A stretch of 64,000 nt of DNA from a virus, in IMG/VR virus record IMGVR_UViG_3300045988_175036, positions 1 through 64,000 of that record. One strand, given 5' to 3'. The position numbers and the translations under genes were made by a program. Shown in pieces: positions 11,569 through 36,713 of the stretch; position 1 is the first letter of the stretch, and every line of letters starts with the position of its first letter. The notes under the pieces were generated by a model, which saw only the letters and a program-made list of their open reading frames with translations, made no database searches and was not told the origin of the DNA.

Positions 11569-12867
11569 ATGCCTAAACGAAATCGCTTACAGCTAGACTT
11601 CTCGCTTTCTTCGGCAGAAGAACGTCAAGTCTTTCTCACGAAATATCTTGAAACCTTAGCGTTTACGCCAACTTCATCCGAACTAGAGCTAATGGCCGAC
11701 TATGTTCTATGGGGAGATAAGAATTCTGACGAAACCATTGAACTAGAAACCTTCTGGAAAAAGAAAGAAAAAAAAGTCGAGTCTCTTGACGAATTACAAG
11801 AAAACCCCACTTTCCTCGAAGCACGTCTTGCTTCTCCTTACGTCGCTCCAAAAACTCAAAAAACGCGTCGAGTCTTTTCTCGTGAAGAAGCTCGCTCTTT
11901 CGCTTCTCCCTATGTGCTCGCGCACCTTGAAGACCTTTGGCGCGAAATTGATACGCTCGACCTCGAAACTCGCTTCTATGAAAACTTTATTGGCCGTCAG
12001 GCCAAGCCTCCCCGCAGTCAGCTCCTTGAACGTTTTACTTCGGCGGAAGCCGAAGAAATTCGCGCGCGCGCCCAATCGCTAACCGAATATGCTTACTTGA
12101 AGAAACGAAAACTTCTAGTTGAGAAACGTTCTGAACAATATCCATGGCGTGATACTTACGCGGCCCCTCTAATCCAGCGTCACACCCCCACTATTGTCCA
12201 AGACCCCGTACCTCCTCCGCTCCTAAACGCAGATATTCCCATTCTTCCACTCGGAAACCTCCCAATTCAACTGGCTCCAAAAATTTTCCCTTCCTCCGGT
12301 GAGTTTCCAACTCCCGGCACTCTAACCCCAGACGAAGAAAAGCTTCTCTCCAAAACCATCTGGCGCGAACCCTCAAATGCGCCGAACTCATTTGATTTCC
12401 GTGACCCAGCACACCTCGCTTCTTTTATCTCTCTTTATTCTGAGCTTTTGCCCGACCAAAACTCTGATGAAGGCCTTCAAGCCCTTTTTTCCACTTTTAC
12501 CTATTACCAAAAACTCGCACGACTTTCACCTCTCTACCTCGACATATTGCGCGCGAAGGTCGAACACGAAACCAACACTAAAATTGTAGAGAAGATAGCA
12601 TCAAAATACGGCAAATCCTATGGCGAAAATTATATTTCAACTCTTTATCGCCAAAAGATATTGCCAAAAATAGCCGCAGCGGCGTCCGCGCATTACCAAG
12701 TTACTTCGGAGTTATTTTTCCCCGAAAACTTCAAAACGTGTAAGGATTGCGCGCGCACGCTACTTAGGACTCCAGATTACTTTATGCGCAAAGCGAAATC
12801 TTCAGATGGCTTTTCACCCCGTTGCAAAGCTTGCGAAAAAGCGCTGCGCGAAAGGAGGAAAAATTGA
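11569..12867 (+). CDS. hypothetical protein (432 aa) with a C-terminal CxxC..CxxC zinc ribbon
   Basis: GGAGGG RBS. C-terminus CKDCARTLLRTPDYF...PRCKAC resembles the N-terminal ribbon of 13130..14125. Confidence 0.7.
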   Translation: MPKRNRLQLDFSLSSAEERQVFLTKYLETLAFTPTSSELELMADYVLWGDKNSDETIELETFWKKKEKKVESLDELQENPTFLEARLASPYVAPKTQKTRRVFSREEARSFASPYVLAHLEDLWREIDTLDLETRFYENFIGRQAKPPRSQLLERFTSAEAEEIRARAQSLTEYAYLKKRKLLVEKRSEQYPWRDTYAAPLIQRHTPTIVQDPVPPPLLNADIPILPLGNLPIQLAPKIFPSSGEFPTPGTLTPDEEKLLSKTIWREPSNAPNSFDFRDPAHLASFISLYSELLPDQNSDEGLQALFSTFTYYQKLARLSPLYLDILRAKVEHETNTKIVEKIASKYGKSYGENYISTLYRQKILPKIAAAASAHYQVTSELFFPENFKTCKDCARTLLRTPDYFMRKAKSSDGFSPRCKACEKALRERRKN

Positions 12868-13139: not shown

Positions 13140-14125
13140 TTCCTCAAATTCCTCGCCCTAAGCGTTCGTTTCTCTCAAAACGGTGCGCGCGATGTCAGGT
13201 AGAACAACCAGAAGAGGATTTCGCTTTCACTCACAGCGAATTCTATCCCGACCACCATCTTCCACTTTGTAATTCATGCATTACTTCGATGTTGCGCGAA
13301 CACGACTTTGATTGGGGTTTTATTGATAAGTTGTGCCAATGGGCCGATATTCCCTTTATTGTAAAAGAATGGGAGAGATTGCGCGAACTCAATTCTCTTG
13401 ATAGTGTATGGGCAGCTTATTCCAAAGTTTTTGCCTCGCAAGATTATGAAGGCCTTGGGTGGGGCTCTTATTTCAAGCAATATCAAGAACTAAAAGCAGT
13501 CGGTCTAGTGGAAGAAGAGATTCCACTTTTGAAGGAGAAGCATTTCGATGAGCTGCGCGCGCGATGGGGCGCAAATTACGATGAAGAGGCTCTCGATTAT
13601 CTTGAGAACCTTTATCAAGGACTTTTGATGTCTCAAAATGTAGTCGGCGCGCTTCAAATTGACCAAGCTCAAAAACTTTGTAAAGTTTCGTATGAGATTG
13701 ATAGTCGCATCCGCGCGGGAGATAAAGATGTCGATAAATTCATGGCAACCTATGACAAGCTAGTCAAAACCGCTGAGTTCACACCTAAAAATATAAAGAA
13801 CGCGCGTGACTTTGATAGCTTTGGTGAATTGGCACTTTGGCTTGAAAAGCGCGGAAATCAAAATAAATTCTACGATGGCGCGACACGTGATGTTATCGAT
13901 GAGACTATCAAAAATATTCAAGCTTGGAACCAGCGTCTCTATGTAAATGAAAGTAGTCTAAGTGAAGAAATTACCGCGCGCCTACAAGCTCTCAAAAATG
14001 TCCAAGAAAGCGAAAACTTCTATGAGACAGAGCAAAAAGATTTCGACGCAGACCTCTACGAAGCAGAAGTTTTCAAAGATGAGGATAGTGAAGACTTTGA
14101 AACAGAAGGAGAGATGGGCATATGA
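13130..14125 (+). CDS. hypothetical protein (331 aa) with an N-terminal zinc ribbon; small-terminase candidate by position only
   Basis: CARC..x25..CNSC. Sits immediately upstream of, and overlapping, the large terminase. Acidic C-terminus. Confidence 0.35.
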   Translation: MPVIPQIPRPKRSFLSKRCARCQVEQPEEDFAFTHSEFYPDHHLPLCNSCITSMLREHDFDWGFIDKLCQWADIPFIVKEWERLRELNSLDSVWAAYSKVFASQDYEGLGWGSYFKQYQELKAVGLVEEEIPLLKEKHFDELRARWGANYDEEALDYLENLYQGLLMSQNVVGALQIDQAQKLCKVSYEIDSRIRAGDKDVDKFMATYDKLVKTAEFTPKNIKNARDFDSFGELALWLEKRGNQNKFYDGATRDVIDETIKNIQAWNQRLYVNESSLSEEITARLQALKNVQESENFYETEQKDFDADLYEAEVFKDEDSEDFETEGEMGI

Positions 14126-14510
14126 GTAATGTAATTCAATTGCGCCCGCCCACTTCTCCTTTTCTTCAAGATAATCGTATCTATCGAGATGGCATTTTAC
14201 TTGAAAAAGGTGTTGAAGTTACTGAAGACTTTTTATTGCGTAATGAAAAGTTTTTTGCGGATTTGACGCAACTTTATACCGTATACCCTGACGTCTACTT
14301 AGACACAATCCAACCAGAAAATAGTCAGTTTGACCTATTTCCGTATCAGCGATGCTTCTTGAGGTCTCTGATGCGTTATAATCAAGTTTATATAACAGCA
14401 ACACGCGCAGCCTCTAAATCTTTTCTTTCTGTTCTAGGAATGTTCTTACAATGCGTTTTCATCCCTGGTCACAAATGTTCACTTATTGCGCCAGTCAAAA
14501 CACAAGGCGT
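14122..14510 (+). CDS. terL: terminase large subunit, exon 1 of 4
   Basis: Walker A-like YITATRAASKSF. The frame runs into a stop 8 codons past the proposed 5' splice site (U14510). Confidence 0.8.
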
Positions 14511-14787
14511 AAGATTTTGCGCCTCTCCTTTGTAAAAAGGAGATAAATCAGACATCTAATTGCTGGGAAACCCTAAAGTCCAAATGCCTTTTATGGAGCG
14601 AAAGCAGAAACAAGTTTTGGAATGGTCTACGGTGAAAGCCTAAAGATTTTTATAATGGGTAATCAGCATCCAACTCATTTTGAGAGGTTCAACGACTATC
14701 CTACGGGAGTAAATTATGAAATGGTGTCTTACCTTTATGGTAAAAGATATAGTCTAATCTTATGTGAAAGCATAAGCTAACAAAATG
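14511..14787 (+). mobile_element. group I-like intron (277 nt, no ORF), terL intron 1
   Basis: P1: exon AGGCGU (14505-14510) pairs with GCGCCU (14519-14524), including U14510.G14519. Core elements: UAAUUGCUGGG 14557-14567, GGUAAUCAGCA, UUCAACGAC 14688-14696, GAUAUAGUCUAAUC 14746-14759. The intron ends in G14787. Splicing restores the frame as ..APVKTQGV|KIFKEKIAEIL.. Confidence 0.75.
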
Positions 14788-15460
14788 AAAAATCTTCAAA
14801 GAAAAGATAGCTGAAATACTAAAGATTTGGCCGCTTCTTGAAAAAGAACTTGAAGTCTTTATGGGCAAACCTCACATCAATTTATCAAAAGATGTCGGTG
14901 AAGCCTATTTCAAAAACGGTTCGCTATTTACTGTCGAGGGCGCCACGGATTCGTCTAGGGGATTAAGACGCCACTCAATTTTCCTCGACGAAACCCGTGA
15001 TGCTGACGAAGATGCAGTTAGTGAAATTATTATTCCTCAATTGAATGTTTCCCGTCGTAATGCGCTTGGCCTTGTAAATCCATATGAAGCTGTAAATCAG
15101 CAAATGATTAGTGGTACTTCTGCGGGCACTAAATCGTCTTATGCTTACGCGTTACTTTGTGAGACAATGATCCAGGCTATAATTGACCCAGCGCACGCTT
15201 TTGTGATGGGACTTGATTATAGATTGCCCGCAATGCATGGCCTGGTAGACAAAGCTTTCGTCGAACGTCAAAAATTCTCATCCTCTTACAATGAAGCCAC
15301 TTTCGCAGCAGAGTTTTTAGGAATTTGGGAAGGCGGAAGCAATGAAGCTTGGTATGATTTTGAGAAACTTTCTAAATACAGAAAGAAAAAAAATCCAGAG
15401 TGGCATCAAAAATATAAAGACGATCCAAATGTTTTCTACTTACTGTCGATAGATATTGGT
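14788..15460 (+). CDS. terL: terminase large subunit, exon 2 of 4
   Basis: Walker B SIFLDE, coupling motif SGTSAG, and the start of the nuclease domain, YLLSIDIG. Confidence 0.8.
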
Positions 15461-15699
15461 GGGCCCTTAGTTCTGCCCTATTTTGTAGTAATATAAAATG
15501 TGTATCTTTCTAATTGCTGGGACACCCTTCGGGGTAATCAGCAACCAATCTACGGACGGTTCAACGACTATCTCGCAAGAGAGTAGAGGCAAGCGCCTCG
15601 AAATGGAAGATATCCCACTGGGATAATGATATAGTCTAATCTTTATGGAAACATAAAGCCCTATGGTATGGAATTAGCGACTTCATACAAATATAAATG
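15461..15699 (+). mobile_element. group I-like intron (239 nt, no ORF), terL intron 2
   Basis: Carries the same core as intron 1: UAAUUGCUGGG 15511-15521, UUCAACGAC 15560-15568, GAUAUAGUCUAAUC 15628-15641. The 5' exon ends at U15460, with weak P1 pairing G15458-C15477, G15459-C15476 and U15460.G15475. Ends in G15699. The junction gives ..SIDIG|RIHDSTVATVF.. Confidence 0.65.
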
Positions 15700-15892
15700 A
15701 GAATTCACGATAGTACAGTAGCAACAGTATTTCGAGTCAATAAAGTAAATGGCAAATACTATTCAACAGTAGTAAATATCTATGTTCTAGGGCGTCAAGC
15801 GGAAACTAAAACTTTCTCTCAACAGGCAATTGATATAAAACTTCTAATTGAGAGATATAATCCGCGCGAAGTCCTTATTGACACTAATGGCT
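15700..15892 (+). CDS. terL: terminase large subunit, exon 3 of 4
   Basis: Nuclease-domain segment RIHDSTVATVFRV...VLIDTNG. Confidence 0.75.
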
Positions 15893-16128
15893 TAGTAGAA
15901 CTTAGGTCATTCAAAATCCCTCTAATTGCTGGGAAGCCTTTTTGAGGTAATCAGCAACGAAGTCGCGTTCGCGCGAAACGCTCAACGACCAATCGCAAGA
16001 TGTAGGGGCAGCGCCCTGAAATGGGGGATACTTTTTTTGTAAAGTAAAGATATGGTCTTCTCTACATAGAGATATGTAGCAGTTCATAAGAGAACGCATA
16101 CGCTTGCGAAACGTATGGAAAATAAAAG
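15893..16128 (+). mobile_element. group I-like intron (about 236 nt, no ORF), terL intron 3
   Basis: P1: exon AAUGGCU (15886-15892) pairs with GGUCAUU (15905-15911), including U15892.G15905. Core elements: UAAUUGCUGGG 15923-15933, CUCAACGAC 15981-15989, GAUAUGGUC 16049-16057. G16128 precedes exon 4. The junction gives ..LIDTNGL|GLGIADEMIK.. An alternative 3' site at G16117 is not excluded. Confidence 0.65.
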
Positions 16129-16664
16129 TAGGTCTGGGAATAGCCGACGAAATGATAAAAACTCATATTGATGGCCGAGGGCGTGAACTTCCTGCTTACG
16201 GCTTTTTCAATAATGATGATTATAAAAAAATTCAACCAAAAAATTGTATTTCAATTCTATACTCAATGAAAGCAAATGGCCCATTGAAATCAAAAATCAA
16301 TGGCAACGCTTATGCTCGTCTAAATAGTGGCCTTGTTCGTTTCTTGATTTCTGAACAAGAGGCGCGCGCTTCACTTCTTGCCACAAAAAAAGGCCAGAAG
16401 ATGTCTATGAAAGAGCGTGCAGAACGGCTTATCCCGCATGAAAATACAACAAAACTTTTCAATGAAATGGGGAACCTTCGTGCAAAACAAACGGGCAATG
16501 ATATCGTCCTTGAACCAATCAATACTCGGTTCCCAGATGATAAATACTATTCATTTGCTTATGGCCTTTGGCGCATCAAAGAAATAGAGGAAGAAGAACA
16601 AAAACGACAAAGGAAACGAGGTCTCAATAAACGAAAACTCGTATTCTTTACAGGAGGAACCTAA
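16129..16664 (+). CDS. terL: terminase large subunit, exon 4 of 4
   Basis: GLGIADEM.. through the basic C-terminus. The four exons sum to 1791 nt, i.e. 596 codons plus a stop, all in frame. Confidence 0.75.
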
Positions 16665-18179
16665 TTGGAAAATCAACAAAACAAAGTAAAAACCGCGCGC
16701 GATATTTCCTCCTTTTCCCGCGCGCGAGAACAAATGGTAGCCAAAAGCCGAGAGGTCTATGGAGACTATGATTATCTATCTGGCGCGCGAGCTTCTCGAA
16801 GATTGCGCAAATATTCCTTGAAGGAGATAGATGAAATTATTAGTTCTGGTTCTTTAGCAGAACAACGAATTTTATCTCGAAATTATTTTTCGCTGGATGG
16901 GCTTTATAAGAGAATTCTTTTGTATTATGCTACCTTGATGAAAGGGGCCGGATTGCTGGCGCCAGTCCCGGCGTATGGCAAGCAACTCTCCGCCGACCAC
17001 ATTCAAAAACGTTATTATAATGCTTTGAATTATATAGACAAGCTTCATCTGGAGGAATTCGAGACAAAAGTGGCATTGCGCGCGCTTATTGACGGATGCT
17101 ATTATGGCGTCATTCAAAGACTTGATAAGAATGATTTGGTTCTTCTTGATTTGCCTGCGCAGTTCGCTCGTTCATGCTATAAGGATATATATGGTAGAGA
17201 TATAATTGAATTTGATGTTACTTATTTCTCTCAAATTACTGATAAAGAAGAGAGAGAAGAAGAATTATCTCTTTTTCCATCAGTAATTAGTAAGTATTAT
17301 CGTCGATATGTAAAAGGTAGGGAAACTTGTTCGTGGGTAAAGGTGCCTTCAGAGTTAGGAGTTTGTTTCTCTTTTATCGAAGATGGTACTCCGCTCTTTC
17401 TTTCTACAATTCCAGCAACAATTCAATATGACGAAGCAGTAGATACCGAGAGAGAAAGAGATTTGGACGAAATTAGAAAAATTCTAATTCAAAAAATCCC
17501 TCATCTTCAAGATGGTTCACTTCTATTTGAACCGGAGGAAGCGGTTGAAATGCACGCTGGCACGGTCGAGATGATGGCTGGAAATAAGAATGTCTCAGTA
17601 TTGACTACATATGCTGATGTTGATTCAATTGTTTCTAAAACATCTTCAGATGCAGTTTCTAATAATTTGGAAAAGATGCTTCAAAATGTATATGCTGAAG
17701 CTAGTGTCAGTGCGCAATTATTCTCACCAACGGGAGCACAAGCTCTTGACAATTCTATTCGTAATGATATGTCCTTTATGATGATACTTATGAATAAAAT
17801 TGCCCGCTTTGTTACCGATTTAGTGAATGGACTTTTTGGAAATACGAATATCTCTTTCAAATATACCATTCTGCCAATTACTTATTACAATCAATCTGAA
17901 TTTATTACTGATTCCATGAAGCTCGCGCAAGCTGGATATAGCTATCTATTGCCATCTATCGCGATTGGTGTTGGACAAAGAGAACTTCTTGGAATAAAGG
18001 AATTAGAAAATGAAGCGCTAGGTCTTCGTGATAAACTAATTCCTCTTGCTTCTTCTTATACTGAGTCAGCTGGAAATGGCCCTGGACGCCCCACAAAAAC
18101 GACAGAACAAAAAGCTCCTTCAACGATTCAGAAAGAAGAATCAATCAATAAGCAAGGAGGCGTGAAGACCGATGAATAA
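16665..18179 (+). CDS. portal protein (putative, 504 aa, TTG start)
   Basis: Lies immediately after terL. Size is typical of portals. AGGAGG RBS before the TTG at 16665. No family motif recognised by eye. Confidence 0.55.
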   Translation: MENQQNKVKTARDISSFSRAREQMVAKSREVYGDYDYLSGARASRRLRKYSLKEIDEIISSGSLAEQRILSRNYFSLDGLYKRILLYYATLMKGAGLLAPVPAYGKQLSADHIQKRYYNALNYIDKLHLEEFETKVALRALIDGCYYGVIQRLDKNDLVLLDLPAQFARSCYKDIYGRDIIEFDVTYFSQITDKEEREEELSLFPSVISKYYRRYVKGRETCSWVKVPSELGVCFSFIEDGTPLFLSTIPATIQYDEAVDTERERDLDEIRKILIQKIPHLQDGSLLFEPEEAVEMHAGTVEMMAGNKNVSVLTTYADVDSIVSKTSSDAVSNNLEKMLQNVYAEASVSAQLFSPTGAQALDNSIRNDMSFMMILMNKIARFVTDLVNGLFGNTNISFKYTILPITYYNQSEFITDSMKLAQAGYSYLLPSIAIGVGQRELLGIKELENEALGLRDKLIPLASSYTESAGNGPGRPTKTTEQKAPSTIQKEESINKQGGVKTDE

Positions 18180-24416: not shown

Positions 24417-25620
24417 AGATAAAATGCCACCATAAGAAGTAATTCTTATTGGAAAAATCTTGTGAATTGCTGGAAGATTCTAAAGCTAACTGACTACAAC
24501 GTAAGAAGTAATTCTAAGCGTGAGAGTGAAAAAATAGTTAGATAGTGAACTCGAAGGAGGTCTAAAATGGATAATCAGCAGCTAAGCATCAATTCAGAAA
24601 TATATTATAGAAAGCCTACTAGTGGGAATGGTTTTATTTATAAATACACAAGTCCATCTGGAAAGAGTTATATTGGAAAAGCAATAGGAACTTTGAAAAA
24701 GAGAGCTATAAATTTAGTCTCTGGGATAGGGTATAAGAAATGTCCTCTTTTTTGGCGAGCAATAAATAAATATGGATTTTTGAATTTTCAGGTAGAAATA
24801 ATTGAAGAAGCCCCTTTATCAATTTTAGGCGAAAAAGAAATTTTTTATATTGAAAAATATAATACAAGAAACCCCCATGGATATAATATTGCTCAAGGTG
24901 GAGAAGGGGGGCAAAAGAAAGAGGTTTATGTATATTCGGCGCAGAATGGAGAATATGTTGGGCATTATTCAAGCTTGACGGAGGCTTCAGTGGAAACAGG
25001 AGTTCCTATTGAAACAATCAGTATAATAATGAAGCAGCAAAGACGAAAACAGGCTCACAATTTGATTTTTTTGGATAGCTATATTGAAAGATATGATATA
25101 AATAATTTAGCTCGAAAAAATTATACAAAAGTTTTTGTATATGATAAAAACGGGAGCTACGTAGGCAGTTATAGCAGTATTTCTAATGCTTCGAAAGAAT
25201 TGGACATATCAGAAAGTGCAATAACACGAGCACTTGCCGGCACTATTTTACATGCTTCATTTTTTCAGTTTAGAAAAGAAAAAGAAGAGTATTTACCTCC
25301 AATTCCCAAAAATTCAAAAAGCCCGATTCCTGTATGCCAAATTGACCCAAAGACAGGAGAAATTCTAAACAGATTTAGTTCTCTTCAAGAAGCTGGTCGA
25401 GCGGTCGGATTGACAAGTGGTAGTGGAATAAAAAAAGTAATTACAAGAGGTAAAGGAACTAGTGGTGGATATTTCTGGATAATTGATGAAAGTTCAACGA
25501 CTAAGTAGAGCAAAATCCTAGCTCTCTGTGCAAGACCTCCAATTTTATTGGAGGAAGATATAGTCTAATCTTAGGCGAAAGTCTAAGCAGCATTTATCTA
25601 GTCACAATAAATGCGGACAG
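24417..25620 (+). mobile_element. group I-like intron carrying a GIY-YIG endonuclease gene (3' boundary uncertain by about 12 nt)
   Basis: Same core family as the terL introns: GAAUUGCUGGA 24464-24474, UUCAACGAC 25493-25501, GAUAUAGUCUAAUC 25557-25570. In-frame 3' sites that follow a G are at 25621, 25627 and 25633. Confidence 0.65.
24567..25508 (+). CDS. GIY-YIG homing endonuclease (313 aa) with three NUMOD1/IENR1-like helix-turn-helix repeats
   Basis: GFIYKYTSPSGKSYIGKAIG, RAINKYGF, EKEIFYIEKYNT and GYNIAQGG. Repeats VYVYS..GEYVGHYSSLTEA, VFVYDKNGSYVGSYSSISNA and IDPKTGEILNRFSSLQEA. The last codons overlap the intron core element at 25493-25501. Confidence 0.85.
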   Translation: MDNQQLSINSEIYYRKPTSGNGFIYKYTSPSGKSYIGKAIGTLKKRAINLVSGIGYKKCPLFWRAINKYGFLNFQVEIIEEAPLSILGEKEIFYIEKYNTRNPHGYNIAQGGEGGQKKEVYVYSAQNGEYVGHYSSLTEASVETGVPIETISIIMKQQRRKQAHNLIFLDSYIERYDINNLARKNYTKVFVYDKNGSYVGSYSSISNASKELDISESAITRALAGTILHASFFQFRKEKEEYLPPIPKNSKSPIPVCQIDPKTGEILNRFSSLQEAGRAVGLTSGSGIKKVITRGKGTSGGYFWIIDESSTTK

Positions 25621-26352
25621 ATTGGGAACCTGTTGAATGTTATGATTAAGGAAGTTTGTGACTTCACTCTATATGATATCAATGACGACGGTTCTATTGG
25701 CGCCCCTGCGCTATATCTGGATACTCTAAAAATTTCAACCGTCGAGCAAACAGCTGATAGCACTTCTGCTCGTGGCGGCAAGGGTAATAGCGAATTGGTT
25801 ATGTGGGATTTTGGTCGTGAAATCACCCTAAACCTTCAGGATGCTCTTTTCTCTGCTAAATCTATGGCAATCATGTTTGGTGATGCTGATGGTGCTTCTG
25901 CTCCTGCTAGTGGTTCTGTGCTTCGTACTTGGAACCTAACTAAGCTTGGCACTCTTAGCGCTGCTCCTACTCAGCTAGATCTAGGCCTTGGTAAGAAGCA
26001 TACTGTTTCTACTAGCGCTGTTTATTATACGGCTACTGGCTCTTCTAGCTCTGAATGGAGTGCTGACGCTGTGTATATCACTGACAAGGTTACTACCAAA
26101 GACCACACTGAAATTGTTATCAATGCTGAGACGTTCCCCGGAACTTATGCATGTATTGGCGACACTTACTGCCGCAGTGAAGATACTGGTAACGATAGCT
26201 TCTTCCAAATTCAAATTCCAAAGGCAAAGATGCTTTCTGACGTTACTCTAACAATGGAAGCTGAGGGCGACCCCACTGTCTTTGATATGCAGATGAAGGT
26301 TCTCCGTCCAAAGAACGGCGAAATGATGAAGCTAGTCAAGTATGATATCTAA
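25621..26352 (+). CDS. major tail (tube) protein, exon 2
   Basis: Beta-rich protein of about 245 aa lying upstream of the tape measure gene. A strong terminator follows. No good RBS precedes the internal ATG at 25642. Paralogous to 26416..27195. Confidence 0.55.
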   Translation: MGNLLNVMIKEVCDFTLYDINDDGSIGAPALYLDTLKISTVEQTADSTSARGGKGNSELVMWDFGREITLNLQDALFSAKSMAIMFGDADGASAPASGSVLRTWNLTKLGTLSAAPTQLDLGLGKKHTVSTSAVYYTATGSSSSEWSADAVYITDKVTTKDHTEIVINAETFPGTYACIGDTYCRSEDTGNDSFFQIQIPKAKMLSDVTLTMEAEGDPTVFDMQMKVLRPKNGEMMKLVKYDI

Positions 26353-27200: not shown

Positions 27201-27235
27201 ATCAGCATTAGTTTTCCGCTAATGCTGATTTTTTA
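27201..27235 (+). terminator. rho-independent terminator
   Basis: ATCAGCATTAG (27201-27211) / CTAATGCTGAT (27219-27229), followed by TTTTT. Confidence 0.75.
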
Positions 27236-27249
27236 TGTGGGAGGGAGAA

Positions 27250-29166
27250 ATGGCAGAAAAAAGAGTAATACAAATTGCCTTTGATGGCAATATAGAAAAA
27301 GTATCTTCTAAAATTCAGACCATTCAAAACGAACTTAGTAAGTTAAGTCTAGGAAAAGGCTTAAATCGTGAATTTGAAGATACTTTTTCTTCTTTGATGA
27401 GTGAACTAAAAAAGCTTCAAGGTTTGACAGATGGTAATAAAGTAGATTTTGTTGATGTAAAAAAAGTTGAGAAAAGCACTGATGCTATTGATAGACTTTA
27501 TGATAAGCTGTCTCGTCTTGCAAGTTCTTCTGGAGTGAATAGTTCGCTTCTCAAAAATGATAAGAAGGCAATTGATGCACTGACTAGCGCGCGAACGAAA
27601 TACAATTCGGTTACAGTAGCGGGACTAAAGGAGCAGCAACGTCTTCAAAAAGATTTAGCTAATGCTCAAGAAAAAACAAACTCTAAAGCTGAAAGGGCGC
27701 AATTTATTGATAATTTACGCGAACAAACTACTAATGCGTTACTAAACGCGCAGAAGGAACTGGCTTCATTAGAAGCTCAATTGCGTGCAAAAGGCGGAAA
27801 TAATCCAACTAAATACCTAAAAACAGATGAAGATGGTAATGTAGTTAGTGCGGATAAGCGAACTTCTCTTGGAAAGCAATACAACGCACTAAAGGAACAG
27901 TTACCTCAGTTAGAAGCAGCGGCGAAAAGTGCCGAAAAGGCTGTTAAGCCAAGTTTTGCACAAATTGAAGAAGAAGCAAAAAAGATTGCTGATGGAATTG
28001 ATAAAGCGAAGAAAGCTCTTAGTGATTTCAATAACACGCAGCCGCAGAAACAAGCAAAAGCTTTTGGAGAGGTACGCCAAGAACTTGAAAAGATTAGCGG
28101 TATTGATTGGAAATCTCTTGGTATTGACCTCAGTAGTATCAATAATATTGATGAACTAAATGATAAACTTTCAATTTTTTCTAGCGATGCTGGGGTTCGC
28201 GCGCAGCTAGTTCTTGAAAATATTCGGAATGCAAGTTCTGAAGGAGCCGAACCACTTAGGGTTCTAGGAAGAAATGCTCAAGCCGCAGGACAAGATTTAC
28301 AAGAACTAACTGACCGAGATAAAGATATTCAACGTCTAACTGACCAATTGAAGAATTTCTTTTCAATTTCTAATTCGGTCCAATTGTTCAAACGAGCAAT
28401 CCGTTCTGCCTTTGAAACAGTAAAAGAACTTGATAGTGCGATGACTGAGATCGCGGTTGTTTCTGATTTCTCTGTCGGAGACATGTGGGAGAAATTACCA
28501 CAATTTACGGCACAAGCAAATGAGCTAGGCGTAGCTATCAAAGATACTTATAATGCAACTGCCCTCTATATTCAGCAAGGCCTTGATCTCCAGCACTCAA
28601 TGGAGCTTTCTAATGAAACTCTAAAAATGGCTCGTATCGCTAGTATGGAAGCCGCAGATGCTACCGATGCGATGACAAGTGCTTTGCGTGGATTCAATAT
28701 GGAATTGAATCAGGCCTCTGCGCAACGTGTCAATGACGTTTACTCAGAATTAGCTGCAATCACAGCATCTGATGTGGAAGAACTTTCTACGGCTATGTCA
28801 AAGACTGCATCTATTGCTCATAATGTCAATATGGAATTTGAGACGACGGCGGCTTTCTTAGCACAAGGCATTGAAACGACACGCGAGTCAGCCGAGACTA
28901 TTGGTACGGCTCTCAAGACTGTTATAGGTCGTTTTTCAGAAGTCAAATCCCTCTATTCAAAAGGTGAAATTACTGGCACTGATGATAACGGTGAAGAAAT
29001 CAATGTAAATAAAGTTCAAAAAGCCCTTCGTACAGCTGGTGTTGATATGACGAAGTTTTTCACTGGCGAAGAAGGATTAGACCAGGTTTTCCTAAATTTG
29101 TCTAAAAAATGGGATAGTTTAGACATAACAACCCAAAGATATATAAGCACCATGGCGGCCGGTAGT
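27250..29166 (+). CDS. tail tape measure protein, exon 1
   Basis: GGGAGGGAG RBS before the ATG at 27250. Coiled-coil N-terminus. TP901-type core (ELDSAMTEIAVVSDFSVGDMW..LGVAIKDTYNATALYIQQGL). The frame degenerates after ..STMAAGS. Confidence 0.8.
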
Positions 29167-30794
29167 AGACGAATTAAACGACGCTGTCCACTGCTTTCTG
29201 CGGCCTAATAATACAGATAACTAAAAATCCTCTTAACTGCGGGAATATCTATTAACTTCTTAATAACCAAGTATAGGTAGAAATATACTATATGGCGAGG
29301 GTAATGACTAAGGTATGGTAAAATCATTAAGAGGGGACAATCCGCAACGAAGCCTCTGAATAGAAAGAGGAACGCTCACAGACTATCGAACGCAATTGAA
29401 ATAAGGCGGCTGAAATGCCGCGCGAAGCAAGTAGAGTAGGGCAGACCGAAAGAGAGGACTCGTTTCATAGCTATTATTGGAAATTTGACTTTTACTCCTT
29501 TATGTGTTATAATATAAATATATAGGAGGAATTATATGGAAAAGCAAATTTTTATTGATGGAATTGAAACTGTTTATACAGTTAGTGATGAAGGTGTTAT
29601 TAAAAATAGTAAAACTGGACGAGTAATGACAATTAACAAAGGTAATGTTCAACTTAATGTTAATGGAAAAGGAACGGGTCGTTCAGTTGGGAAAATTGTA
29701 GCCGAGGCTTTTTCTTGAAAAGCCAGAAGGTACTTCTTTAGTAAACCATAAAGATGGAGATAAGATGAATAATCGAGTTGATAACCTTGAATGGATTACT
29801 AATAAAGAAAATTCTAAAAACGTTTGGAATAAACGAAGAGAAAATAACACAACAAATGCTGGTAAAACAGTGGAAAGGAAGAAGCGAGAAAATATAGTCG
29901 AAATTGATACTGGTTTTTTGACAGAAGATGAAAAACAAATAGAAATAGATGGAGAATTGATTCCTTATTCGATAAGTCAAAATGGTAAAGTGAGAAATTT
30001 ACGAACGGGTAAATTTCTAAAAGGCTCTATTCTTCATACTTATAATTATATCAATTTTCGTTGGGATGGAAAGCAAAAGAATAAAGCAGTCCATAGATTA
30101 GTTGCTGAAGCTTTTCTCTCAAAGCAAGAAAATGCGACAATGGTAGATCATATAGATGGCGATAGGCTAAATAATAAAATCGAAAATTTGAGATGGGCAA
30201 CTCCTAAAGAAAATGCTAATAATATTCACTTAGAGAAAACGCCTGAAAAGCCTAAAATTCAAGAACACTTTTTTACTGAGGATGAGTTATGCTCTGAAGT
30301 TTGGAAGAAGTATCTTGGTTATGGCATTTCTAATTTAGGAAGAATAAAAGGTAAAAGAGGCCAAGTCCTAAAAGGAACCGCATTAGACTGTGGGTATATT
30401 AGTTATATGATAAATAATAGGTCATCTCTTGGTCATGTATTAGTTTGGGAAGCTTTTAATGGTGAAAAACACAATGAAATGGTTATCAATCATATAAATG
30501 GAAATAAGCATGATAATCGCTTGTGTAATTTAGAGGAAATTTCTCATCAAGAAAATATGCTTAAGGCTTCAGAAGAAACTAATGCGTGGGGCTTTAGAGA
30601 AGTTGGTGAATTTGATGAAGCAGGTAATATGCTTAGAAAATTTGCTAATGCCTCTGTCGCCGCGCGGGAGATTGGAATTTTGCCTAGTTCAATGAGAAAT
30701 ACCATTAGAAGAAATGGTAAATGCCATAATGGTTTATCATATCGTTATTTAGATAAGTAATATTGTCAAAAAACTTATAAAAAGTCGATTTAAG
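29167..30794 (+). mobile_element. group I-like intron (about 1.63 kb) carrying an HNH endonuclease gene
   Basis: Splicing U29166|...G30794| fuses ..QRYISTMAAGS to QSRFIAMISNYSKTMELVN.. in frame. About 370 nt of structured, ORF-free RNA precedes the endonuclease gene. A tentative P7 pairs AUCGA(A)C 29385-29391 with GUCGAU 30784-30789. The core differs from the other four introns. Confidence 0.6.
29536..30760 (+). pseudogene. HNH homing endonuclease with three tandem NUMOD4-HNH modules, split by a frameshift at a T5 run
   Basis: ORFs 29536..29718 and 29765..30760 join into one protein (..[33 protein letters not shown]..) if one T is removed from TTTTT at 29709-29713. HNH motifs: NHKDGD..NN..NLEW..ENSKN, DHIDGD..NN..NLRW..ENANN and NHINGN..DN..NLEE..ENM. 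A C-terminal IENR1-like HTH is present. Confidence 0.7.
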
Positions 30795-33700
30795 CAATCA
30801 AGATTCATCGCAATGATTTCCAACTATTCCAAAACTATGGAATTGGTAAACGCAGCGAATAATAGTGCTGGTGCAAGTCAAGAACAGTATGAAAAAACAC
30901 TCGAAAGTCTTGAAACGAAACTCTCAAAGTTGAAAAATGCTTGGGATGAATTTGTAATGGGGCTTTCTAATAATGAAGTCATAAAAACCGCAGTAGATGT
31001 TCTAACAGGCTTGCTTCAAACAATCAATAAAATTATTGATGGACTTTCTGGCGGGAATGGTCTTATAAAATCAATTATATCCATTACTGCTGCAATTGGT
31101 GGTTTGAAGCTAGGAAAGTCTATTATTAGCTCTCTTATCGGGAATATGGTGGACACAAGAGAGGGTGGAATACTTTCTAATATTTTTGGAACAAAAACTA
31201 CTCAACAAAAAGCTGGACTTCAAACGGGAAAGAATTTTCTTTCTGGGCTTTCAGATGCAATAAAGAACAAAAGTCTGCCTAAGACAGACTATATTATTTC
31301 CGACTTTTCAAAAAATTTGACAACTGTTTTCAAAAGTAAGGAATGGAGCTTTGATTTTTCAAATGCAAAGCCAGAAGGTCTTACGCAGTTCAAACAGAAT
31401 ATTACAAACTCTCTATCGCAAGGCGATGAAGCTTCTAAAGCTCTTTCAGCACAGTTTTCTTCTCTTTGGGATACAAAGAAATACAATGAAGCAATAACTG
31501 TTCTTGAAAAAGCTGGAATCCAGATAAAATTGACTGGCGAAGAAGCTCAGCAAATGGGTATTTCTGTATCAAAGACTGACAAAGATTTTAGAACAATGGC
31601 TATCGCGGCAGGAGTGGCAGCAAGTGCTTTGATGGGACTGGCTACTATTCTTGATAATAATGGAAAGGAAAAAGCAGCCAATATCGTTCGCGGCATAGCT
31701 ACTGCTCTAATGGGTCTTATTCCAGTTATTACAATGGTTCAAACTGCTATGATAACTGGCGCTAAAAGTGTATCTGTTGCTATCAAAAATATTCCATTTA
31801 TTGGTTGGATTGCAGCAATTATTTCTGCTGTAATTTCTCTTATTCAAATTTTTTCACAATTTGCTCCAGAGACTCAAGCCAAAAAGACAGAACGTTTAGC
31901 AGAGCAAACCCAGAAGGCAGCAGAAGTAGCACAAGCAGCGCAACAAGCTTACTCCAATTTGGTTGAAAGTTTTGACAAATATGGAGAAGCTGTTGATAAA
32001 ATCAATGATTTGACAGTTGGAACTACAGAATGGAAAAATGCACTTCTTGATGTAAATAATCAAGTTTTGGAACTCTTGGATAAGTATCCTCAATTAGCAT
32101 CTTATTTGACTTCTGAAAATGGTGTATTAGGAATTTCAGAGGAAGGTATCCAGAAGGCTACAGATATTGCACAAGAGCAAGCACGTAGAGCTCAAGCCTT
32201 ATCCGTTACGAGTCAGTATGCTGAAACAACCAATCAGAGAAGAATTGCTCAAAAAGCATATCAACAAAACTTCTGGTCTTATGACCAATATACTGGTAAT
32301 GTTATCACAAACCCCGAAGCAGCAAAAGCTTTTTCAAATTATCTCAAAGAAAATCCAGATATGACAGCCGAAGATTTTCAGACTTTGGCTGGAGGCGCAG
32401 GGGAAGAACTCTCCAAATTGGCTGATATTACTGGCCTTACTGTCAATCAAATGGCGGATTTAGTAGATATTACTCGTTCTTATAATAAAGATATGGTAGC
32501 TTATGGTCTTCAAGAAGAAAATTACCGTAATGCTTTGGGAGTTTTAGCGGGGGATGTTTCTTCTAATAAACGTTGGAGTATGGTCACTCAAATGTTTAAC
32601 CTGGATGAGACTGCTTCTGAAATAGACGCCGCGCGTGATAAATTGGATACGACAATTTCTGAAATGGCTCGTGACTTGAAAGATCAAGGTTATACAAGTA
32701 TTATGGATTTGACCGGAAGTGACGCCACTTACCGTCAAGTTTATGAAGCCGTTACAGGTCAAAGTTCAGAGGGCGTTGATATTGACAGTATAAAGGATTA
32801 TTTAGCTCAATTCCAAGTTTTGAATGGCCAAGTTGAAGAAGCTATTCCAATTCTAAATAAGTTGACATCAATGAAAAATCAAGGCCTAGCTGATGAAATT
32901 GCTGGACGAATTGCTGGTGGAACTGGCCTAACGCGAGCTCAAGCAGAAAAACCACTTACAAAAGCTGACTTGCAGGAAATGGCATCTCAAATGGGATATG
33001 CTAATGACGATGAAATGGCAAAAGCTTTTGGATTTGATGATTGGACGGCTCTTTTCAATCAGTGGTCACAGGACGCCGCTTCAATTGCTTCACAGTTTGA
33101 GGAAAAGGAAGCAACTGCTGCTAATGTTATTGGTCAAAATCAAGTAGAAAAAGCAAGCTCTTTGATGGGAGATAAAGACTTCCAAACCTACTCCAAATAT
33201 CTTGAACAATTGGCAACTCTTTATGCTAAAGCGGGGGTAAATGGCGCGCAAGCGGTTGATTTGTTCCAAAGTTCTCTTGAAGCTTTGATTTCTAATAATC
33301 CTCAGTATGAGAAAGAAATCAAAGATATTATTGGAATGACCGACCTTTCTGACTATGACAGTGTCGAAGCAGCAATTTCTGATATAAAAGAACTTATTCC
33401 TGGAGTTGGAGACGAACTCAATAATTTTGAGACAGCTCTTATTCAACTAGGTAAAGCCACTAAAAAAGTCAACTTGAAAACCACAATGTCTGATTTGACT
33501 TCGATGTTAGACTTAGCAGATGAGATTTCTTCCCGCTCTCGTTCCGAAGGCATTACTCAAGACGAACTAGAACAAATTGTATCTAGTGGTGCTGCTGACT
33601 ATTCTGATTTTATGTTTACAGGTCAGGAATTTATTCCAGTGACTTCTACTATGGACGACCTGGCCGAAGCAGTGCGCGCGAACACTCAAGCCGCTATTGA

Positions 33701-36700
33701 AAATACTTTAGCGCTTTTGAAGCAAGCAATTAGTGAGGGCGAATATGTTGAAGAAATGTTCAATCAAGAGGAATCTTGGAAAGGGATTTCTGACGAGCAA
33801 AAAAATCGAATTCTAAGCGGAGAAGCTAGTGCGACGCTTGATGCGAATGTAATTCGAGATGTTCTTCAATTAGACAAGAGTGCCTCTACGGAAGAGGTTA
33901 TGTCTAAATATCGCGCCTATATGCCAGATTATTTGAATTTAGCTGATAATCGTTCTCAAGCAGAAAATTATCAGAGTTATATGGACCAGGCAGCCGCTTG
34001 GAACACCGACGCGCAAAATCTCCTTCTACAAGGAAATACAGATGCTCTCGATGATATTGTCAACGCGCGTGAATTGAGTGGAACCGTTGAAAAACTAACG
34101 GATGATTATGAAGCCAATACAGAAAACGGCGAAGCCAACTCTGACATGATGAAAACTCAAGGTGTCAGATATACAGAGAATGAGAAAAAAATAAAAAAAC
34201 TTTGTGAAGGTATTGAAGACGTAAAGGATGCTTTTGATAAAGGAACTGAAGCTTTGGCCAACGGTGAGACTCCTGCTGACGATTATTGGCAAGCTCTTTC
34301 TAAAATTGAGAGTAAAGGCCGCCAAGTCTTTGGTGAGAATTTTACTCAAGATTTCATCCAGCAAAATGCTGATTTGATTTCTCAGCTGACCGAAGGCGGA
34401 GAAGTTGGCGAACAAGCTTTTATTTCCCTTCAACAGAAAATTTCTGAAGCCACTCAGCAAGCAGTTGAAGATTTGACTTATTTTGATACTAATCTCCAGC
34501 AAGTTAGAAGTGCACTTGACGGGTTAGATGGAGTAAAAGCCGAGTTCAAGGTCAATGGCACTGCTGATGTATCTCAATTAGTTCAACAACTAATCCTTGC
34601 TGGTAACACAGCGGCTGAGGCCGCGCGGATTGTTGAGTCTTTGACAGGTTCAACTGTTACTTATACTGTTGATTGGCAGTGGGTTACTCTTCCTACTTCG
34701 TTAGCAATGAGTTCCACTTATGCCGGTCTTGAGAAGGCAGGCGCGAGTGGCGGTTTTACTTCTGTAAAAATTCCTAAAGTTATTCAGGCAGTTGGCACAA
34801 AAAATAATTATAGCGGCTCTGGATACTCCGGTTCTTCTAGCGGAGGCGGCGGAGGAGGAGGAAGTTCTTCTAAAGATACCGTTTGGGAGAATCCTTATGA
34901 TAAGCTTTATAATTTGACGGAGCAAATCAATGAGGCTCTACGTCAGCGCGAAAAACTTGAAAGAGAGTATGACAGAATTCTTGAGCGCAGAGGTTCGACT
35001 TTCAAAGAACTTCGTGCGAACTACAATGCTCAAGTCAAGTCTCTTGAAGAAGAAATTAAACTCCAAGAGAAACTGCGCGCGGGTCGTAAGGGACAGCTTG
35101 ATGCGATTAGTAATGAAAAATATACGGATAGTGAAGGAAATCGTAAGACGTTCGCGCAGACCGGAGCAACAAAATATGCACGATATGACCAAAGTCTAAA
35201 TCGTATTATTATTGATTGGGATGCTATTGATATGATTACTGATGATGACCTTGGTTCTGCTGTCGAGGCTTATGTCAGTCGGTTAGAAGAACTTCAAGAC
35301 CAATTTGAAACAACAGATGAAACAATTGAAGATATGAAAGATACTCTTGATGAGTTACGCAAAAGTCAAATGTCTGATTATCTTGATTTTGAACAAAGTG
35401 TCTATGACGCTCTTGTAAATGCTCAACAGAAGCTTATTGACGAGTATCAATCTCTATCTGATAGTATTGCTGATTCAAATTCTAAAATTTTGGAAAATCT
35501 TCAAGAAAGTATTGATTTAGAGCGTCAAATTCGAGATAATACAAAAACAGAAGAAGATATCAATGAGAAAGAAGCTCGTTTAGCTTTCTTGCGACGTGAT
35601 ACTTCAAACGCCAACGCTTTAGAAATCAAAAAATTGGAAGAGGAATTGAGCGACGCTAGGGAAGATTATTCTGATAGTTTAGTTGACCAACAGCTTGAAC
35701 GCCTTACTCAACAAAATCAAGATGCACAAGAAGCACGTGAAAAGCAAATTGAACTTATGCAAGCTCAACTTGATTATGCTTCTGAGAATGGCGAATTCTG
35801 GAATAGAGCATATGAATTGATAAATGAAGGCTTCGCGGCAGATGGTTCTCTCAATCAAGCAGCTCAATTATGGGAACTCCTCAAAGCTGATGAAGGCTGG
35901 AATGGTCTAAGCAAATTTGGCCAGCTGAATTGGCAAGAAGAAATTTCTAAGGCGATTATCGCTGCCAGCCAAGGCTATGCTAACTGGAACATGTATAAAG
36001 CTGAACAAGTGGACAAGTCTTTGGTTCTACCAGATGGAACTCTATTGACTTATGATGGGAAGCAATGGAAAGATAGTAATGGCAATGTTTATAATGGAAT
36101 TGATTTTGATTCTAATAAAAATCAATTTACCTATGGTTCGATTGATTATACTACACCACCAACACCAGGAGGGGGCAGTACCGGTTCATCCAGTGGAGCC
36201 GAGAAGAAAGAAATTTCTGTTGGCAGCACATTCAATGCCACTGGTGCTCCTATCTATCCATATCCGGGCGGCTCGGCTCAGCGGCAATATTTTGCTAATG
36301 ACCCTTATTATGTAGCAATTGGTGAATCTGGCGATTATTGGCTTGCTCGTTGGCATGGAGCTTCTTCTGGCTCAACTGGTTGGTTCAAGAAAACAGATGT
36401 AAAAGCATATAGGACTGGTGGCTTAGCTGATTTCACCGGGCCCGCTTGGCTTGATGGAACAAAATCTCATCCAGAATTAGTTCTCAATGCTAAAGATACT
36501 CAAAACTTCCTCATTCTCAGGGATATTTTGAGTTCTGCTGTCAAAAATGCTGGAACTTCAAATAATGGCGGAGATAATTATTATGATATAAACATTTCTG
36601 TTGATGAAATTGCTTCTGATTATGATGTTGACCAACTCGCGCGCCGTGTCAAGGAACAAATTGTAGAAGACAGCATTTATCGTAATGTCAACACAATAAG

Positions 36701-36713
36701 TTTTATCAGATAA
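30795..36713 (+). CDS. tail tape measure protein, exon 2
   Basis: Continues the tape measure core. Has TM-like segments (about aa 270-345 of this exon), long coiled coils, a Gly/Ser linker (SSSGGGGGGGSSS), and a C-terminal ..GGLADFTGPAWLDGTKSHPELVLNAKDT.. motif. Exon 1 plus exon 2 gives 7836 nt, or 2611 aa. Confidence 0.8.
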   Translation, partial: QSRFIAMISNYSKTMELVNAANNSAGASQEQYEKTLESLETKLSKLKNAWDEFVMGLSNNEVIKTAVDVLTGLLQTINKIIDGLSGGNGLIKSIISITAAIGGLKLGKSIISSLIGNMVDTREGGILSNIFGTKTTQQKAGLQTGKNFLSGLSDAIKNKSLPKTDYIISDFSKNLTTVFKSKEWSFDFSNAKPEGLTQFKQNITNSLSQGDEASKALSAQFSSLWDTKKYNEAITVLEKAGIQIKLTGEEAQQMGISVSKTDKDFRTMAIAAGVAASALMGLATILDNNGKEKAANIVRGIATALMGLIPVITMVQTAMITGAKSVSVAIKNIPFIGWIAAIISAVISLIQIFSQFAPETQAKKTERLAEQTQKAAEVAQAAQQAYSNLVESFDKYGEAVDKINDLTVGTTEWKNALLDVNNQVLELLDKYPQLASYLTSENGVLGISEEGIQKATDIAQEQARRAQALSVTSQYAETTNQRRIAQKAYQQNFWSYDQYTGNVITNPEAAKAFSNYLKENPDMTAEDFQTLAGGAGEELSKLADITGLTVNQMADLVDITRSYNKDMVAYGLQEENYRNALGVLAGDVSSNKRWSMVTQMFNLDETASEIDAARDKLDTTISEMARDLKDQGYTSIMDLTGSDATYRQVYEAVTGQSSEGVDIDSIKDYLAQFQVLNGQVEEAIPILNKLTSMKNQGLADEIAGRIAGGTGLTRAQAEKPLTKADLQEMASQMGYANDDEMAKAFGFDDWTALFNQWSQDAASIASQFEEKEATAANVIGQNQVEKASSLMGDKDFQTYSKYLEQLATLYAKAGVNGAQAVDLFQSSLEALISNNPQYEKEIKDIIGMTDLSDYDSVEAAISDIKELIPGVGDELNNFETALIQLGKATKKVNLKTTMSDLTSMLDLADEISSRSRSEGITQDELEQIVSSGAADYSDFMFTGQEFIPVTSTMDDLAEAVRANTQAAIENTLALLKQAISEGEYVEEMFNQEESWKGISDEQKNRILSGEASATLDANVIRDVLQLDKSASTEEVMSKYRAYMPDYLNLADNRSQAENYQSYMDQAAAWNTDAQNLLLQGNTDALDDIVNARELSGTVEKLTDDYEANTENGEANSDMMKTQGVRYTENEKKIKKLCEGIEDVKDAFDKGTEALANGETPADDYWQALSKIESKGRQVFGENFTQDFIQQNADLISQLTEGGEVGEQAFISLQQKISEATQQAVEDLTYFDTNLQQVRSALDGLDGVKAEFKVNGTADVSQLVQQLILAGNTAAEAARIVESLTGSTVTYTVDWQWVTLPTSLAMSSTYAGLEKAGASGGFTSVKIPKVIQAVGTKNNYSGSGYSGSSSGGGGGGGSSSKDTVWENPYDKLYNLTEQINEALRQREKLEREYDRILERRGSTFKELRANYNAQVKSLEEEIKLQEKLRAGRKGQLDAISNEKYTDSEGNRKTFAQTGATKYARYDQSLNRIIIDWDAIDMITDDDLGSAVEAYVSRLEELQDQFETTDETIEDMKDTLDELRKSQMSDYLDFEQSVYDALVNAQQKLIDEYQSLSDSIADSNSKILENLQESIDLERQIRDNTKTEEDINEKEARLAFLRRDTSNANALEIKKLEEELSDAREDYSDSLVDQQLERLTQQNQDAQEAREKQIELMQAQLDYASENGEFWNRAYELINEGFAADGSLNQAAQLWELLKADEGWNGLSKFGQLNWQEEISKAIIAASQGYANWNMYKAEQVDKSLVLPDGTLLTYDGKQWKDSNGNVYNGIDFDSNKNQFTYGSIDYTTPPTPGGGSTGSSSGAEKKEISVGSTFNATGAPIYPYPGGSAQRQYFANDPYYVAIGESGDYWLARWHGASSGSTGWFKKTDVKAYRTGGLADFTGPAWLDGTKSHPELVLNAKDTQNFLILRDILSSAVKNAGTSNNGGDNYYDINISVDEIASDYDVDQLARRVKEQIVEDSIYRNVNTISFIR

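Follow-up and report, generated by a model that had tools for sequence, protein, structure and literature searches.

Group I introns have been reported in phage terminase genes since the description of Lactobacillus delbrueckii phage LL-H (Mikkonen and Alatossava 1995, as cited in PMC4299906 and PMC9610469); in Bacillus phage Moonbeam that gene contains two (PMC4299906). In a 2025 survey of the Bastillevirinae, 5 of 52 terL genes were found to be split, some of them by two or three introns; the mean intron length in that survey was 802 nucleotides (nt), and splicing of the SIOphi terL was shown both in vitro and in vivo (PMC11878797). Another essential late gene, the tail tube gene orf142 of Staphylococcus phage Twort, carries group I introns at three sites (Landthaler and Shub 1999, as cited in PMC10136302 and PMC11878797). 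Here we describe the terL gene in a stretch of 64,000 nt (positions 1 to 64,000 of IMG/VR virus record IMGVR_UViG_3300045988_175036), referred to below as the window, which belongs to the ~115-kb genome of an uncultivated human-gut phage. Our comparisons indicate that this gene is very probably interrupted by three independent small group I introns lacking open reading frames (ORFs), named W1, W2 and W3 in their order along the gene and apparently belonging to the phage-type subgroup IA that bears P7.1/P7.2 hairpins.

The Bastillevirinae terL genes (those of the Bacillus phages SIOphi, phiAGATE, Moonbeam and others) resemble this gene in that a large terminase is split by group I introns recognised by the same Rfam model, in some cases by two or three, and their introns carry Vsr/DUF559-type and HNH endonucleases of the kinds found in relatives of the window phage (L110, L165, L060). 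They differ in that their product is an SPO1-like myovirus terminase, whereas that of the window is of the SPbeta YonF type, in a human-gut phage known from sequence alone; their introns average the above 802 nt and mostly bear endonucleases, whereas those of the window are 236-277 nt long and ORF-less. To the Bastillevirinae survey the window lineage adds a detailed mosaic of intron presence and absence among relatives. Phage LL-H shares the group I intron in a terminase gene, but its intron is single and the phage an unrelated small siphovirus. Twort orf142 is likewise an essential late gene with three small group I introns, there of subgroup IA2, in an intron-rich genome with introns in structural genes, and exon skipping between tandem introns is possible in both systems; it is, however, another gene of another family, its splicing has been demonstrated, and the exon between its introns 2 and 3 measures 23 nt, in contrast to internal exons of 673 and 193 nt in the window. 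With the IA2 introns of T4 (td, nrdB, nrdD) and of the Staphylococcus Kayvirus phages those of the window have a core sequence family in common: the W2 core is ~70-80% identical to introns in Staphylococcus, Bacillus (phiNIT1) and T4-like phages, and a stretch of 34 nt (J8/7-P7-P9) is identical to a Kayvirus intron. The T4 and Kayvirus introns sit in nucleotide-metabolism, polymerase or lysin genes, most of them with endonuclease ORFs, unlike the ORF-less introns in terL. The IA2 label that we tentatively give to the window introns rests on this similarity to the T4, Twort and Kayvirus introns. Because multi-intron phage terminase genes are already documented (PMC11878797), the split terL of the window adds a well-supported example to a known phenomenon, the differences being of instance and not of kind, and no new mechanism is implied. 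The novelty suggested by a first, sequence-only reading of this DNA was therefore overstated, as terminase genes with one, two and three group I introns had been published (PMC4299906, PMC11878797).

Exons, spliced product and empty sites in relatives

The predicted organisation of the gene is as follows.

14122-14510, + strand: terL exon 1, 389 nt; residues 1-129 plus the two first bases of codon V130
14511-14787, + strand: intron W1, 277 nt, in codon V130; long P5 extension, P7.1, no clear P7.2
14788-15460, + strand: terL exon 2, 673 nt; final base of codon V130 to G354
15461-15699, + strand: intron W2, 239 nt, between codons G354 and R355; complete P1-P10 with P7.1 and P7.2
15700-15892, + strand: terL exon 3, 193 nt; R355 to the first base of codon L419
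15893-16128, + strand: intron W3, 236 nt, in codon L419; compensatory change from U-A to C-G in P7 relative to W1 and W2
16129-16664, + strand: terL exon 4, 536 nt with the stop; from the second base of codon L419 to T596

The insert lengths agree with the 277, 239 and about 236 nt proposed by the sequence-only reading, and its exon sum proved exact: joined, the exons (389+673+193+536) give 1791 nt, that is 596 codons and a stop, open throughout. The insertion points lie in codon V130 in phase 2, between G354 and R355 in phase 0, and in codon L419 in phase 1. Read on from exons 1, 2 and 3 into the inserts, the frames meet a stop after 25, 36 and 53 nt, respectively (ORF ends at 14535, 15496 and 15945). 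The spliced protein retrieved 2094 homologues, the top full-length ones being uninterrupted, 592-607 amino acids (aa) long and 61-75% identical to it from end to end. Aligned with intron-less homologues, it shows no gap at any of the three junctions, and the junctions proposed earlier (QGV/KIF, DIG/RIH and NGL/GLG) are thereby borne out residue for residue. The junction residues K131, G354, R355, N417, G418, L419 and G420 are invariant in the homologue alignment, and sites 2 and 3 adjoin the invariant aspartates D352 and D415.

Empty sites in near-identical relatives are the strongest evidence for these predicted intron boundaries. In the IMG/VR contig L002, terL differs from the window at 16 of 1791 coding positions (99.1% identity), with no insertion or deletion, and all three sites are empty at exactly the predicted bases. 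Of the codon changes, 15 are synonymous and 1 is non-synonymous, none creates a stop or shifts the frame, and by this comparison the terL exons are under purifying selection. Our intron survey covered the 80 best IMG/VR loci plus L001, and terL was uninterrupted in 74 of them. The close relatives compared are listed below with the introns found at sites 1, 2 and 3 (I1, I2 and I3); their exon identity to the window is 97-99% unless stated.

L002: none
L009: I3 only
L103: I1 and I2
L090 and L106: I1 and I3
L110: I1 with an endonuclease gene, and I2
L164 (QZMF01000111.1): I1 with an endonuclease gene, I2 and I3
L165 (ERZ1035027 NODE-23): I1 with an endonuclease gene, a site-2 intron with an endonuclease gene, and I3
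L010 and L084: another terL intron at residue 182/183
L001 (85% DNA identity to the window): sites 1 and 2 empty, a different intron at site 3b, 5 nt downstream of site 3

Site by site, the first position is empty in L001, L002, L009 and L010 and holds the same intron as W1 in L103, L090, L106 and L084; the second is empty (GATATTGGT followed directly by AGAATTC) in L001, L002, L009, L090 and L106 and holds the W2 intron in L103, L110 and L164; the third is empty in L002, L010, L103 and L110 and holds the W3 intron (97% identical) in L009, L090, L106, L164 and L165. At site 2 the boundary in empty-site alleles is unambiguous to the base. At site 3 a 3-nt repeat (TAG) allows four placements, of which only one, that chosen by the sequence-only reading, has both a U before the cut and a terminal G.

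By its protein families, its annotated homologues and its position in the packaging module, the predicted spliced protein is the large terminase (TerL) of the SPbeta YonF type. It matches the PHROG large-terminase families phrog_2 (E 6e-22) and phrog_9 (E 3e-9), and in tblastn the annotated large terminase of Geobacillus virus E3 (39% identity, E 3e-108) as well as SPbeta-like and other large Bacillota phages, including a protein of Brevibacillus phage Sundance labelled 'YonF'. The terL start codon overlaps the stop of an upstream YonG-like gene, whose counterpart in L001 has a YonG_N domain, and the portal gene (phrog_2739, E 5e-54) begins immediately after terL, at 16665. Exon 1 encodes a Walker A-like P-loop, T92-A-T-R-A-A-S-K99-S, with T92, A93, R95, A96 and K99 invariant in the homologue alignment; exon 2 encodes, in invariant columns, a putative Walker B motif with the catalytic glutamate (H192-S-I-F-L-D197-E198), the sequence TSAG at residues 240-243 and, within SIDIG, the probable first nuclease aspartate D352; exon 3 encodes the central strands of a putative RNase H-like nuclease with an invariant D415-x-N-G-L-G motif. 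The domain layout of the sequence-only reading thus holds for the Walker A and Walker B fragments but not for a nuclease in two halves, since this domain spans exons 2, 3 and 4, with D352 at the end of exon 2.

No cultured close relative was found, a megablast of the region against GenBank phages returning one 34-nt intron-core match only. None of the GenBank phages has the W1-W3 introns, and their terL protein identity is no higher than 39%. A scan of genome contigs found distant relatives only (52-61% identity), in mixed metagenome-assembled genomes (Faecalibacillus, Clostridium, Muribaculaceae and a probably mis-binned Methanobrevibacter). Contig L163 derives from a human gut metagenome.

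Core structure, exon recognition and kinship of the introns

All three inserts match the full-length model of the Rfam group I intron family RF00028 (gathering threshold, 50 bits), W1 with 65.7 bits (E 2e-14), W2 with 89.2 bits (E 1.9e-21) and W3 with 69.0 bits (E 2e-15), which upholds the group I identity proposed from the letters of the sequence. Also in line with that proposal, the four core strings UAAUUGCUGGG, GGUAAUCAGCA, YUCAACGAC and GAUAU(A/G)GUC occur in each of W1, W2 and W3, each 5' exon ends in U and each insert in G. The largest internal ORFs have 52 aa in W1, 42 aa in W2 and 38 aa in W3, too short for a homing endonuclease, and the inserts are therefore rightly called ORF-less. 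The core helices were placed as follows.

14551-14775, + strand: W1 catalytic core; P3 14551-14556/14723-14728, P4 14561-14566/14663-14668, P7 14694-14698/14750-14754, P8 14729-14743, P9 14759-14775
15505-15658, + strand: W2 core, first part; P3 15505-15510/15605-15610, P4 15515-15520/15538-15543, P5 15525-15534, P7 15566-15570/15632-15636
15505-15658, + strand: W2 core, remaining helices; P7.1 15572-15581, P7.2 15586-15599, P8 15611-15625, P9 15641-15658
15917-16079, + strand: W3 catalytic core; P3 15917-15922/16023-16028, P4 15927-15932/15951-15956, P7 15987-15991/16053-16057, P7.2 16004-16017, P8 16029-16046, P9 16062-16079

Covariation was assessed in an alignment of W1, W2 and W3 with five related introns from other contigs (n=8). 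RNAalifold recovered P3, P4, P5, P7.1, P7.2, P8 and P9 from it, and when the P7 pseudoknot was included 93.3% of the pair cells were paired, as against 80.5% after shuffling of columns and 37-51% after sliding the 3' partners by 1-3 columns. Changes on both sides were seen at 23 pairs, one of them in the P7 pseudoknot; the covarying helices are P3, P5, P7, P7.1, P7.2, P8 and P9, with P7.2 covarying at all 5 of its pairs, while P4 is uninformative because it is invariant. P7 reads GACUA/UAGUC in W1 and W2 and GACCA/UGGUC in W3, so that the A/G variation within GAUAU(A/G)GUC is one half of a compensatory P7 change. P6 was found by eye (CC/GG or CG/CG). Both P7.1 and P7.2 hairpins are present in W2 and W3, and P7.1 alone in W1, together with a P5 extension of ~90 nt.

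Near the 5' end of each intron a guide sequence pairs with both flanking exons, the guide G lying 9-15 nt into the intron.

14511-14524, + strand: W1 guide; P10 AAGAUUUU (14511-14518) with AAAAUCUU (3' exon nt 2-9), 8 base pairs (bp); P1 GCGCCU (14519-14524) with AGGCGU, 6 bp
15469-15477, + strand: W2 guide; P10 AGUUCU (15469-15474) with AGAAUU, 6 bp; P1 GCC (15475-15477) with GGU, 3 bp
15900-15911, + strand: W3 guide; P10 ACUUA (15900-15904) with UAGGU, 5 bp; P1 GGUCAUU (15905-15911) with AAUGGCU, 7 bp

In all three guides the P10 strand is directly adjacent to the P1 strand, and a U.G pair stands at the cleavage site in P1 of W1, W2 and W3; the 6-7-bp P1 with a U.G pair that had been claimed for the first and third introns measures 6 bp in W1 and 7 bp in W3. 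The P1 of W2 extends by 3 bp on the intron side (GGG/UCU). Compared with shuffled exon flanks, the combined P1 and P10 length of W1 (14 bp) was equalled in 0 of 5000 shuffles and that of W3 (12 bp) in 0.2%. A different but related intron occupies site 2 in L056 and L165, and its guide region, AAAGAAUUUUGCCA, is unlike that of W2 yet makes the same P1/P10 pairings with the same exons.

By eye, the W1 P10 strand AAGAUUUU (14511-14518) can also pair with AGAAUU (15700-15705), where exon 3 begins, in a 6-bp helix that includes two G.U pairs. Given this pairing, skipping of exon 2 is conceivable; it would shift the frame because exon 2 has 673 nt. Exon skipping has been reported for the tandem-intron genes of Twort and SIOphi (PMC11878797).

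W1, W2 and W3 are mutually 57-67% identical and stand nearer to introns at the same or neighbouring sites elsewhere (W2 to that of L056, 73%; W3 to that of L062, 71%). The idea that they are recent copies of one another was rejected on these figures; they are three lineages of one intron family. At site 3b, after codon G420, the intron is either ORF-less (247-268 nt) or contains a 253-aa HNH ORF (1027 nt); its coordinates are 5117-5384 in L001, 4252-4498 in L062, 4058-5084 in L060 and 4252-5278 in L061. The introns of sites 3 and 3b are 71-73% identical, with common 3' tails and different guide sequences. The terL intron at residue 182/183 (L010 1803-2999; also L084) has 1197 nt and a 317-aa zinc-finger/Vsr-like ORF, lies alongside a dense cluster of synonymous changes and apparently has a C before the cut.

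A 20-mer from the P5 extension of W1, GGAGCGAAAGCAGAAACAAG (14593-14612), occurs exactly in 32 IMG/VR phage contigs (L082-L113) of 5.8-313 kb. It sits in a terL site-1 intron in 6 of the 32, the match elsewhere being limited to a module of ~20-80 nt, which looks like a conserved peripheral RNA element that recurs in numerous phage introns of other genes. Part of W1 is also found in Enterocloster phages, but not in their terL.

Mobility, splicing and competing explanations

Near-identical phages hold from none to three of the terL introns in different combinations, which suggests that these introns are mobile, or were so recently. Several versions encode putative endonucleases in the P6 loop: the site-1 intron has a 367-aa ORF (zinc-ribbon plus DUF559/Vsr-like) in L110, L091, L164 and L165; the site-2 intron of L165 has a 333-aa ORF with, by eye, similar Cys-rich repeats and the same C-terminal motif; and the HNH ORF of the site-3b intron was found in L060 and L061. 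The introns of the window are most likely endonuclease-less forms. Such copies would persist through precise splicing and may spread by recombination with co-infecting relatives, or by cleavage by endonucleases supplied from them.

It is also possible to read the natural population as one in which small group I introns that encode no protein come and go independently and precisely, without co-conversion tracts, at five or more terL sites as well as in the tail-tube-like and tape-measure genes, by a route independent of endonucleases; we regard this as distinctly unlikely. The presence of one intron family with different guides at sites 3a and 3b, 5 nt apart, would point to movement without an intron-encoded endonuclease, and candidate routes would be reverse splicing into RNA followed by recombination, or retargeting by a change of guide sequence. 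If this were true, near-isogenic phages with 0-3 introns would become available for measuring the cost or contribution of an intron.

As for splicing, terL would be transcribed as a single precursor RNA in which each intron would fold into its P3-P9 core, its own guide pairing with the end of the upstream exon (P1, with the U.G pair at the cleavage site) and with the start of the downstream exon (P10). Free guanosine would attack the 5' splice site, the freed 3'-OH of the exon would then attack the bond after the terminal G of the intron, and the four exons would be joined into the 1791-nt reading frame. Since the intron stops at 25, 36 and 53 nt truncate the unspliced message, a functional packaging enzyme would need all three splicing events.

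Several points weigh against a terL with three self-splicing introns. We infer both the splicing and its autocatalysis, and some phage introns that pass RF00028 showed no self-splicing in vitro and were spliced only in vivo (PMC11878797), so that autocatalysis free of helpers cannot be assumed. The combined P1 and P10 of W2 was equalled by 5.5% of shuffled flanks, a marginal result, and its P1 is weak, with 3 exon base pairs; exon recognition of W2 is the weakest of the three introns. W1 has no recognisable P7.2. No single-nucleotide polymorphism near the junctions co-segregates with intron presence among nine close relatives, the two flanking site 1, T at coding position 363 and A at 417, being private to the window; homing with co-conversion is consequently not demonstrated for the window's copies. 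Regarding the protein, Pfam Terminase_6C over residues 351-431 scored 17.9 bits, under the cut-off of 22.6, a sequence search of the PDB with the TerL profile gave no match, and an AlphaFold2 model of TerL (12-sequence alignment) reached a mean predicted local distance difference test score of 48, too poor to confirm the fold. For these reasons the Walker A, Walker B and nuclease assignments are best taken as putative and rest on the invariant motifs A93-x-R95-A96-x-x-K99, D197-E198, D352 and D415 read from the alignment. Foldseek matches of the poor model (Hermes transposase, T4 gp17 ATPase and RuvC) are loosely consistent with an ATPase plus an RNase H-like nuclease; being unreliable, they were not used as evidence.

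The best-surviving alternative, unlikely but credible in our view, is that the introns are genuine and removed in cells but that at least one of them, most plausibly W2 or W1, needs a host or phage protein or an RNA chaperone, as several phage introns that match the same Rfam model yielded nothing in vitro although infected cells did splice them (PMC11878797). The short P1 of W2 and the missing P7.2 of W1 would fit such a need. On the other side, these introns retain all core helices, including the G-binding P7, together with P10 and the terminal G, and these elements covary; W2 also has the highest Rfam score of the three. Short P1 helices are, moreover, common in phage introns of subgroup IA.

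Retention of the introns as regulators, with GTP- or timing-dependent splicing gating the terminase and tying packaging to the cellular energy state or to the late phase of infection, is an idea raised for phage introns in ATP- and nucleotide-handling genes (PMC11878797), and any such dependence would be multiplied where one essential late gene has to be spliced three times in series. We hold it to be very unlikely here, as relatives 97-99% identical to the window manage without one, two or all three introns, none of which can thus be required, and the sequence indicates no regulatory element beyond the ribozyme.

It is highly improbable that the three-intron arrangement is an assembly chimera of strains with fewer introns. 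Strains with 0, 1 and 2 introns do coexist in public data, the exon polymorphisms are mosaic, and the exact ORF-less combination of I1, I2 and I3 was found in none of the examined IMG/VR contigs; but all three sites are occupied on one molecule in two other independent assemblies, L164 and L165, and each intron is real whatever the linkage.

That terL is decaying, the inserts being dead intron remnants or other insertions and the ORFs pseudogene pieces of a phage with another terminase or a defective genome, is scarcely credible: a second terL could lie outside the visible 64 kb of the ~115-kb genome, but none was found within the window, the exons differ from the intron-less allele almost exclusively by the synonymous changes given above and are under purifying selection, so that the fragments are not pseudogene pieces, a possibility the sequence-only reading had itself raised, and the introns retain every catalytic element and recur in at least 8 independent contigs of 58-120 kb. 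Each of the computational tests applied spoke for the interpretation given in the sequence-only reading.

Other introns of the window and wider significance

Two further group I signals came from a relaxed Rfam search.

24417-25644, + strand: intron W4, 1228 nt, with a 313-aa ORF at 24567-25508
about 29171-30792, + strand: intron W5, about 1622 nt, in the tape-measure gene

The Rfam score of W4 is only 27.5 bits because its ORF separates the two halves of the core. This ORF has a GIY-YIG-like motif at its start (by eye), NUMOD1 in Pfam and homing-endonuclease families in PHROGs. W4 lies nine codons past the start (24390) of a virion structural gene (phrog_2729) that is probably tail tube-like, and the spliced N-terminus would read MADILSRYG/IKEVCDF; L118-L122 and L128 also carry the intron, and L123-L127 and L129 have an exact empty site. 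For W5, the 5' exon ORF spans 27235-29208, the 3' exon continues in the ORF 30813-36713, and HNH/NUMOD4 ORFs in the intron are split in two (29536-29718 and 29765-30760). The sole junction that restores the SRQQSRF of the homologues has a C instead of U before the cut and an A instead of G as the last intron base; the W5 splice sites are approximate. At these positions the ORF-less relatives L151 and L156 have C and G, and exon position -2 covaries with the candidate guide sequence (AGAC with GUCC, AGGC with GCCC).

Some relatives have further large insertions absent from the window, of ~770 nt at 25713-25722 in the virion structural gene (L124-L127) and, in the tape-measure gene, of ~1390 nt at ~28580 (L146) and of ~1007 nt at 28672 (L149-L151 and L156); these are presumably introns. 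In this phage lineage, the late structural genes form a hotspot for introns.

As a separate observation, the hexamer GCGCGC occurs 67 times in the window, where 5.6 +/- 2.3 occurrences are expected from dinucleotide-preserving shuffles, in a genome of 38% G+C; the count of CGCGCG is 80, and at 12 sites the run reaches GCGCGCGC. The alternating CG runs lie in coding regions on both strands (e.g. 12062-12071, 16362-16369 and 40358-40365), and other G+C-rich palindromes are not enriched (GGCGCC 6, CCGCGG 5).

Gene callers split terL of the window into four hypothetical ORFs, and one truncated product represents a cluster of 506 sequences (P0007); as gut phages are classified with TerL as the standard marker, annotation that recognises introns alters the counts. 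Our findings extend multi-intron terminase genes from cultured Bacillus myoviruses to an abundant family of uncultivated SPbeta-like human-gut phages, and the introns in virion structural and tape-measure genes weaken the suggestion that phage introns colonise only genes of DNA or nucleotide metabolism (PMC11878797). Near-identical phages with 0-3 introns, in endonuclease-bearing and endonuclease-less forms, offer a natural experiment on the life cycle of introns and their endonucleases.

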